A stretch of DNA of 64,000 bases from GCF_988242995.1 NZ_OZ547043.1; one strand, 5' to 3'; positions 40,088 to 40,684 are shown, numbered from the stretch's first letter. Notes: generated from the letters alone by a model not told the origin. Numbers and translations: made by a program.

Positions 40088-40684
40088 ATGGTGGCCTGTT
40101 TGGGAGAAATAGCAGTGGTTTGTGGCGCGATCGCAGCAGACGGCATAAGTCCGCTAATGAAAGCCTACATCAAGTCAAGCGAGGATATGGTAGTCGGATA
40201 TATCGGCGAAGGTTCCTCTGCCGAATTAATGTCTGTTTGGCAGCCGTCACTTGAAAATGTGGCAATAGGTGGAATTTTTGGCAAGCTGGCGGATACGGCG
40301 CAGTTGATTACCGGACACACAACCAAAAGCCGCCTCAACGCTACCCTTGTGTGGGAAGGGCAGCAGCCGCCGGAATTTACCCTTGTCCTAGATTTTTTAG
40401 CGATGTCCAACGCAAAAACGGAAGTGAATGATGCCATTACGACGTTGCTGAAAATGGCATCGCCAGAACTAAACGACATTACGCCTTTTGGTCGAGTCCC
40501 GGAAGCCGTAACGATCAATATCGGCAGAAACGTGATGTTAACGAACGTTGTGATCAAAAGTGTGAGCTATCAGCTTGATGCCCCTCGCACACCGGAAGGC
40601 TATTTCACTCACAACACGGTAACACTTCTATGCAGTGGGAACACTTCTCTCAACCGCAGCAATATATCATCTGTTTTTGTTTAG
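40088..40684 (+). CDS. Hypothetical protein (up to 198 aa), orphan cargo ORF at right end of island; true start uncertain (alternatives near 40157 or 40184)
   Basis: ORF track; no recognisable motif; hairpin gccacc-tgtaat-ggtggc overlaps annotated start. Confidence 0.5.
   Translation: MVACLGEIAVVCGAIAADGISPLMKAYIKSSEDMVVGYIGEGSSAELMSVWQPSLENVAIGGIFGKLADTAQLITGHTTKSRLNATLVWEGQQPPEFTLVLDFLAMSNAKTEVNDAITTLLKMASPELNDITPFGRVPEAVTINIGRNVMLTNVVIKSVSYQLDAPRTPEGYFTHNTVTLLCSGNTSLNRSNISSVFV

Follow-up and report, generated by a model that had tools for sequence, protein, structure and literature searches.

The virion protein PmgG is essential to phage P1, which on its deletion makes nothing but aberrant polytubes and polysheaths in place of tails (PMC9024508). 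Six copies of PmgG make up a "tube-linking" ring that joins the tail-tube initiator to the baseplate hub (PMC12810830), bridging the mismatch between 6-fold and 3-fold symmetry and docking the sheath initiator PmgA (PMC12810830; bioRxiv 10.1101/2025.07.21.665459). A diverged copy of the pmgG gene is described here from outside any phage, in a 64,000-nucleotide stretch of NZ_OZ547043.1 (GCF_988242995.1), the whole of which is referred to as the window. It is an uninterrupted open reading frame (ORF) of 198 aa (40088..40684, + strand) within a 9-kb integrative, satellite-like island and, as a first-pass annotation of the window had already noted, it is the sole substantial gene from the iteron/origin region (~39650-39790) to the right end of the island.

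Satellites with comparable gene content or comparable cargo have been described. EcCIMP1, an E. coli phage-inducible chromosomal island (PICI), is induced and transferred by phage Kapi1, and carries virion genes homologous to those of its helper 3' of the primase gene (PMC11773190). Blocking tail assembly is among the functions established for cargo genes in PICIs and P4-like satellites (PMC11364771). The inhibitors Tai and Tab, found in PICIs, P4-like satellites and prophages (PMC11364771, PMC10884400), resemble the island gene in being single-gene cargo of an accessory slot with a proposed block of tail assembly; Tai acts by binding, in siphoviruses and podoviruses, to the central tail fibre or the tail needle, and those papers do not present Tai as a copy of a phage structural gene (PMC11364771, PMC10884400). 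By these published descriptions the island candidate is set apart from Tai and Tab, being itself a diverged subunit of a contractile-tail baseplate. Ccm of SaPIbov5 (Carpena et al. 2016) is reportedly a satellite homologue of the helper major capsid protein that co-assembles with it and redirects helper morphogenesis. The island protein would share with Ccm the character of a diverged satellite copy of a helper structural protein; Ccm concerns the capsid and has a demonstrated function, whereas island PmgG would target the tail baseplate.

The first-pass annotation had taken the ORF for an orphan of unknown function without recognisable motifs, which proved wrong. The protein matched PHROG 1114 ("PmgG-like") over residues 12-197 with E=9e-60, and the solved P1 PmgG (PDB 9ay5_G, 9vzk) with E=5e-41; Pfam and NCBIfam returned no meaningful match (Glypican and metallo-beta-lactamase, both at E >0.01). 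In tblastn searches the ORF matched 22 phages of the P1/P7/D6 type, with 72% identity to D6 PmgG (residues 10-198) and ~40% to the P1 and P7 proteins (residues 17-197), and identity to PmgG of D6-like phage-plasmids was 80-86%. The structure check led to the same family, as a Foldseek search with an AlphaFold2 (AF2) monomer model placed P1 baseplate PmgG on top (chains 9vzk_2 and 9ay5_G, template-modelling scores 0.72-0.85), followed by tube-like baseplate proteins of PVC, AFP and T4, as befits a tail-tube-like fold. The model's predicted local distance difference test score (pLDDT) averaged 70.6, exceeding 80 in the core and staying under 50 across residues 41-83. Full-length homology and a tube-like fold are thereby shared with PmgG of P1, P7 and D6 (PHROG 1114; T4 gp48-like; PDB 9ay5, 9vzk). 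The hexameric ring and the need for the protein in tail assembly have been established for P1 only (PMC9024508, PMC12810830), the island protein being known from its sequence and model. The identity of the gene as pmgG and its origin from a D6-like phage-plasmid are secure; its function in the island we infer.

In P1, D6 and the D6-like phage-plasmid NZ_CP159120.1, pmgG belongs to a late operon with the gene order 23-22-21-pmgG-bplB. The island copy does not lie between gene 21 and bplB, and instead stands alone, in an accessory slot at the right end of this replicative island, between the putative origin and the right attachment site (attR). Homology to the phages begins 83 nt 5' of the GTG start codon and ends 3 nt 3' of the stop codon, where the terminal TAGGAG represents the stop plus the first bases of the bplB ribosome-binding site (RBS). 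Over this stretch (40032-40687) nucleotide identity is 86.3% to NZ_CP159120.1 and 70.8% to D6, and elsewhere in the island only the conserved C4/icd module is similar to the 94-kb phage-plasmid (~70%). As the limits of the fragment fall around pmgG in the phage gene order, the island carries exactly one gene cut from the late operon. These alignments show a single-gene pmgG cassette with gene-precise boundaries, captured from a D6-like (P1-related) myoviral phage-plasmid. The RBS is the same as in the phages, and the start codon is GTG as in the phage orthologues (TTG in D6). The setting differs, in that the phage gene is part of the late operon of a ~90-kb phage, whereas the island copy is encoded by itself on an integrative element of the chromosome. 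The cassette and its immediate surroundings are made up as follows.

39932..40031, + strand: backbone right-end segment, missing in the closest pmgG-less islands and present in other related islands
39993..40021, + strand: putative sigma-70-like promoter, CTGATA-17-TAAAAT, in the island backbone and reading into pmgG
40032..40687, + strand: phage-derived fragment of 656 bp, with the last ~39 nt of a gene-21 homologue, the hairpin, the RBS, pmgG and TAGGAG
40078..40095, + strand: hairpin GCCACC-TGTAAT-GGTGGC with a 6-bp stem, of phage 21-pmgG intergenic origin and the same in the phage-plasmid
40102..40107, + strand: Shine-Dalgarno sequence GGGAGA, 7 nt 5' of GTG 40115, invariant in the island, the phage-plasmid and D6
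40115..40684, + strand: pmgG-like coding sequence, 189 aa from the conserved GTG, homologue of the tube-linking protein at the junction of baseplate and tail tube
40165..40557, - strand: antisense ORF of 130 aa, spurious, without a PHROG match and facing a coding sequence with a ratio of nonsynonymous to synonymous substitution rates (dN/dS) of 0.07-0.23
40229..40348, + strand: central divergent segment, aa 39-78 from the GTG, with a 7-aa deletion and P45S/F46L; pLDDT <50
40688..40755, + strand: spacer between the phage fragment and the resumed right-end homology of the island, resembling degenerate backbone sequence

Outside the island, the nearest homologues do not exceed 80-86% identity in the 5.8-billion-protein collection, the GTDB representative genomes and IMG/VR, and all the others lie on phage-sized contigs or shorter fragments, most of 80-105 kb. 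The GTDB representative genomes yielded no further capture of pmgG, their eight loci all being on phage-plasmid-sized or short contigs. A ~85% identical copy is carried on plasmids of 89-96 kb in 17 further complete E. coli genomes, and the island and phage-plasmid copies agree without a difference over stretches of 29-44 nt. An origin of the fragment by imprecise phage excision was rejected, since the fragment is internal to the island, ~240 nt from attR, with the arm sites of the island in between.

The captured gene is intact in all four island alleles (28 loci). Compared with 65 phage homologues, it keeps 69 of the 73 columns that are conserved in the family (in at least 90% of them), the exceptions being P45S, F46L, S76A and Q172L. 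Relative to the nearest phage-plasmid copy, dN/dS is 0.225 for the whole gene and drops to 0.07 over the 111 residues at the C terminus. The island copy differs from the sampled phages chiefly in its central segment (aa 39-78), which is unique to it: amino acid identity there is no higher than 40% to any of the 65 phage homologues, whereas the flanks reach 92-95%. Among phage pairs of comparable C-terminal identity, 180 in all, none falls below 66% here. The proportion of nonsynonymous differences (pN) in the segment is 0.29-0.34, at a C-terminal synonymous distance of 0.29-0.30, against a maximum of 0.088 in 95 phage pairs with a proportion of synonymous differences (pS) of 0.2-0.4. The peptide WQPSLENVAIGGIFGK is an example of what is specific to the island protein. 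A donor of the island-type segment was sought in IMG/VR and the JGI metagenomes, with no exact match; the best IMG/VR relative is 80% identical and is without the deletion.

Differences among the island alleles are almost all recombination tracts, so that selection since capture is not measurable from them. Variant A (at least 23 contigs; L033-L036) departs from the main allele chiefly in a tract of ~140 nt (40375-40516), with the phage-plasmid state at 13 of its 14 sites, a pattern that marks it as the product of gene conversion between the island gene and its phage counterparts; variant B is set apart by T123A. The conversion tract ends before the central segment, and the island-type segment is kept in every island allele. 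A metagenomic contig of 935 nt (L040; ENA ERZ27280388, k141_230561) carries the island allele for ~540 nt with one mismatch, and the rest of its aligned part (positions 1-865) is 100% identical to D6 through the end of pmgG into bplB. The final ~70 nt consist of Illumina adapter, and no second contig of this kind is on record among 15 billion proteins; L040 is either real, as an island-D6 recombinant or the junction of a cointegrate, or else a chimera of the assembly. The conversion tract and this contig provide sequence-level evidence that the island and D6-like phages meet in the same cells. Even with a neutral gene, the conversion tracts would mean that islands and phage-plasmids exchange DNA in nature.

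The first-pass annotation had proposed a cargo gene, and the distribution of pmgG bears this out: it is accessory, occurring in two of 52 related islands (complete E. coli genomes, each with at least 80% of the island, among 5426) and in 2/5426 complete E. coli genomes overall. The closest islands, in strains PKF11 and LH10-b-1, have a 97.6% identical backbone and ~100 unrelated nt where pmgG would sit. Absence or poor conservation in related islands with no expression, or a confident match to a mundane family, had been named in the first-pass annotation as refuting its proposal. The gene is indeed absent from most related islands and does have a confident family match, but neither makes it mundane, since the family is that of a phage structural protein found outside any phage.

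The island pmgG allele was found on 129 to ~290 contigs, the range arising as different gene calls of one locus are counted separately, and the sources include E. coli and E. fergusonii. All 17 of the larger loci that were read have the same island at the same site, yejM-tRNA-Pro ... (yejO)-narP. Between hosts the island differs by 0-5 mismatches in 8.9 kb (99.83-100% identity), with flanking genes (yejM, narP-ccm) that are 1.2-6.5% divergent; being near-identical across hosts with divergent flanks, it appears to have spread recently between lineages and species. In one host with ~11% flank divergence (L014), the backbone is a mosaic with 2-15% divergence, yet just one mismatch occurs across 39850-40850. 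Contig JACCGV010000036.1 of GCA_013851005.1 (L009) is identical to the window. Comparison of 31963-40924 with loci L007-L016 showed that yejO is missing in some hosts of the island.

A diverged copy of an essential phage tail-baseplate component gives better grounds for the first-pass suggestion of helper manipulation or defence, for which the gene is a plausible candidate. With a gene of this origin, the island probably engages the tail assembly of D6/P1-type phages in some way. The favoured reading, with a probability of roughly 0.4, is that island PmgG co-assembles with the tail baseplate of D6-like phages and interferes with it or re-specifies it. In this scheme pmgG would be transcribed from the promoter-like element of the upstream backbone, with the order promoter-pmgG-attP-int in the excised circle. 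Once the late programme of a co-resident D6-like phage-plasmid is under way, the island protein would enter the phage PmgG ring, which the near-identity of its N- and C-terminal core to the phage protein (92-95%) would make possible. Mixed rings would then be a poor match for the partners on their axis or in their lumen (hub, tube initiator, tape measure), given a central segment unlike that of any sampled phage, and since each ring has six subunits, most baseplates would be spoiled or re-specified even if variant subunits were in the minority. Fewer infectious phage would amount to satellite-type interference or to population-level defence. The outcome would be like that of the Tai/Tab tail-assembly inhibitors, and the principle like that of satellite proteins that mimic helper structural proteins. 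The reading draws on the gene-precise capture with a native RBS and sense orientation behind the backbone promoter-like element, on a conserved core with one altered segment, on the keeping of the cassette across backbones and host species, and on the signs that island and phage meet; precedents are the tail-inhibitor cargo (PMC11364771) and the virion-gene homologues of EcCIMP1.

Several points weigh against this proposal. The gene is absent from 50 of the 52 related islands and, having been captured a single time, is not something that the island family conserves. The pmgG-bearing island is also a very recent clone (at least 99.8% identical), so that an intact ORF says little about selection after capture. 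The central segment is the most variable part among phages as well, and its own pS (0.33-0.59) is compatible with its arrival from a phage lineage not yet sampled. As P1 PmgG is also without the same seven residues, the island protein may simply be a fully functional PmgG. The ORF matched no PADLOC defence model (PADLOC v2, 2023, older than Tai), and the island has neither a P1-type TGATCR pac cluster nor similarity to the pacA region of the phage-plasmid. Poisoning of tails would also hurt the satellite's own transfer if the target were its helper, a point made for Tai (PMC11364771). The role of pmgG is deduced from sequence, its promoter being a consensus match only.

The recency of the clone equally serves the view, possible but doubtful, that pmgG is a neutral passenger, a by-product of illegitimate or short-homology recombination with a co-resident D6-like phage-plasmid that persists because capture and spread are recent. 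A lone capture event with a pmgG-less majority of islands fits such a passenger, as does the lack of a defence-model match, and a clone of this uniformity would have had too little time for decay. Moreover, the alleles differ nearly always through recombination with phage copies and not through selection in situ, and the low dN/dS relative to those copies may show pre-capture constraint only. Neutrality accounts less readily for gene-precise boundaries that include the native RBS, in sense orientation behind a promoter-like element of the backbone. It also sits uneasily with a cassette and flanks that have 1 mismatch per 1000 bp in an otherwise 2-15% divergent mosaic backbone (host flanks ~11%), and with an island-specific segment that is found in all alleles despite the adjoining conversion. 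A divergence concentrated in one segment, with a core dN/dS of 0.07, is not the uniform pattern of a pseudogene either.

The constrained core, with its 69 of 73 conserved residues, could instead mean that the island supplies a working PmgG that is built into helper tails and aids the assembly of, or ejection from, particles with island DNA. The helper already encodes PmgG, which leaves no obvious benefit, and this explanation is unlikely, although the P1 protein too is without the 7-aa stretch, and EcCIMP1 and a related island (L031) carry blocks of virion homologues 3' of the primase gene, the EcCIMP1 ejection-protein genes being the parallel. Sister islands without pmgG are the commoner (50/52, complete genomes), and no packaging determinant tying the island to D6 or P1 was found. 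If L040 is real, the island-type N-terminal two-thirds sits in a phage pmgG beside bplB, which would count for a working part; as a single 935-nt contig with adapter at its end, it may be an assembly chimera. The same contig, structured as one cointegrate junction (island-type 5', D6 3', then bplB), would also suit a role of the 656-bp stretch in cis, as a patch of homology through which the excised 9-kb island cointegrates with a ~90-kb phage-plasmid and rides in headful-packaged particles or in the plasmid prophage. P1 packages by the headful mechanism, and its terminal redundancy of roughly 10% could take about 9 kb, which counts for such a role together with the phage-type conversion tract in variant A and the identical runs of 29-44 nt. 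A role in cis, however, could do without an intact ORF and without gene-precise boundaries that take in an RBS, RecA recombination is poorly served by 86% identity, islands without pmgG are again the commoner, and a single contig of the L040 kind among 15 billion proteins is little to show for it; this last account is very improbable. Over these alternatives, interference with or re-specification of D6-like baseplates by co-assembly is preferred.

Stated most fully, the proposal is that of a PICI-like Escherichia satellite with a "Trojan" baseplate-ring subunit, with a ring-forming core and a rewritten centre, that poisons or re-specifies the contractile tails of D6/P1-type phages; in this full form it is tentative, and we lean against rather than towards it. 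If true, this would be the first known satellite or defence element acting on P1-group phage-plasmids, and the first known targeting of a myovirus baseplate by structural mimicry. Known satellites act on helper capsid size, packaging or late transcription. The island points to a so far undocumented parasitic or antagonistic partner of the P1 group, which comprises resistance-gene vectors and classic transducers, and to subunit mimicry against contractile tails as a likewise undocumented route of interference. The protein is a new member of a known family, and a lone P1/D6-type baseplate ring gene as the cargo of a PICI-like island is a new arrangement. No description of a lone pmgG as island cargo was met in the searchable literature, where none of the papers naming "PmgG" concerns islands. 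The case is directly testable, with one small gene, phages D6, P1 and P7 available, and the P1 baseplate structures 9ay5 and 9vzk solved.

At the 5' end of the gene, gene callers vary in their choice of start (40088, 40100, 40115 or 40157). The likely start, judged from DNA alignment with D6 and the D6-like phage-plasmid, is GTG 40115, because both this codon and its RBS are conserved in the phage orthologues; D6 uses TTG at the equivalent position, and protein homology begins at residue 10 with D6 and at residue 17 with P1 (198-aa numbering). The alternative starts put forward in the first-pass annotation, at 40157 (MKAYIK) and 40184 (MVVGY), both fall inside conserved coding sequence and were dismissed. 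Two of its other observations held: the ATG at 40088 does lie within the hairpin, its first two bases (A88, T89) in the loop and its third (G90) in the stem (GCCACC/GGTGGC, 40078-40095), and the antisense ORF of 130 aa is spurious, since it has no family match and overlaps a + strand coding frame under purifying selection. The D6 counterpart of the hairpin has a longer stem of 9 bp. The fold is not energetically exceptional (z -0.27), and the 3' spacer is energetically ordinary too.

The promoter-like element CTGATA-17-TAAAAT matches the consensus at 9 of 12 positions and was the sole site in a consensus scan of 39300-41050. The -22 motif of P1 late promoters, AAGTGACTT, is absent upstream of the ORF; across the window it occurs 8 times, where chance would give 10.9, and no occurrence is close to the ORF. 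The backbone segment that contains the element (39932-40031) recurs at the right end of islands that use different tRNA sites, in ~68 E. coli genomes, where 72 nt of it align at ~87% identity. The shared right-end stretch, with CTGATA-17-TAAAAT, measures ~70-220 nt and is 87-98% identical, with counterparts at 8849-9069 of L017 (the same promoter-like element) and 9001-9042 of L018. The segment looks like a conserved outward-reading element, which in the excised circle would read towards attP and int.

The island encodes, on one strand, an integrase, an AlpA-type regulator, an isrK-like RNA, a C4 RNA with Icd, DUF4222, a DUF927 primase-helicase of 711 aa, SSB, ProQ/FinO and PerC, and it contains iterons. 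It adjoins tRNA-Pro(GGG) (31901-31977), which is followed by the integrase gene. From the probable core of the left attachment site (attL) and that of attR, its extent is probably ~31963-40924.

31963..31979, + strand: probable attL core, in the 3' end of tRNA-Pro(GGG)
40810..40848, + strand: integrase arm-type repeats (TTTTAGTTATAYGTTT...), matching repeats that adjoin the int gene (32083-32155)
40910..40924, + strand: probable attR core (CTCTCGTG-GACCAAA), an imperfect repeat of the 3' end of tRNA-Pro, deduced from the sequence

An integrase, an AlpA-type regulator, a primase and origin, genes in one direction, a tRNA attachment site, a length within ~9-20 kb and the lack of structural and lysis modules mark the element as of PICI type. 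None of the island proteins matched a PHROG for packaging or redirection genes (rpp, terS, capsid-size). P4-like satellites share with it C4/CI-type antisense RNA immunity with Icd, a primase-helicase and iteron origin, a tRNA-linked integrase and accessory hotspots. The island differs from them in that PHROG searches found no sid, psu or delta gene, and no P2-type cos site is present, so that it is not P4-like in this sense.

With EcCIMP1 (PMC11773190) the island shares a tRNA-linked tyrosine integrase, an AlpA-type regulator, DUF4222, Ash/C4/Icd, DUF927 and PerC, with identities of 62% over 555 aa for the DUF927 primase, 50% for PerC and 36% for the integrase. Both have homologues of virion proteins 3' of the replication module, those of EcCIMP1 being homologues of its helper's proteins. 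EcCIMP1 is larger (20 kb against 9 kb) and carries podovirus ejection-protein homologues where this island carries one myovirus baseplate gene; its mobilisation has been demonstrated, whereas the present island is known from its genes, with mobility indicated, indirectly, by its identity across hosts. A closer relative is L031 (NZ_CP070115.1 2636916-2656270, FDAARGOS_1298, tRNA-Gly), with a primase at 79% and an SSB at 90% identity. Since EcCIMP1 and L031 both carry virion-protein homologues, phage virion genes as cargo appear, from gene content, to be a recurring theme of this island family. The block in L031 spans 7.7 kb and includes PHROGs 992, 1145 and 684, and that of EcCIMP1 (L032) comprises DUF2824, a DNA ejection protein and a lytic transglycosylase. 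The two have the backbone Icd-DUF4222-DUF927-SSB-ProQ-PerC in common.

The region 34287-34717 is a P1/P4-type immunity module, with an isrK-like RNA (47 bits, just under the gathering score), a C4 RNA (76 bits) and an Icd-like ORF; RefSeq places an "ash family" pseudogene over these RNAs. The D6-like phage-plasmid NZ_CP159120.1 (L019/L020) has two separate C4-Icd-antirepressor modules, one of which is identical over ~250 nt to the P1 c4 region. The b' loop of the island C4 RNA and its targets (GCAAAAGG) are the same as in one of the two modules (module 1). Cross-immunity with the phage-plasmid was considered and is not clear, as the b' loop matches but the a' loop differs at 3 of 7 positions (target TTGCTAC against TTGAGAC). 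Iterons of the GGGACA(A/G)GT type occur in two sets of inverted orientation, at 37365-37506, just 3' of the primase gene, and at 39650-39790, the putative origin, the latter followed by the AT-rich stretch TATATATATA. The ProQ/FinO-family gene (38042-38578) has an in-frame stop at codon 57, which divides it into 56 aa and 119 aa and is shared by the identical locus L009 only; in most sister islands ProQ is one undivided protein, of 178 aa or, in a few, 175 aa.

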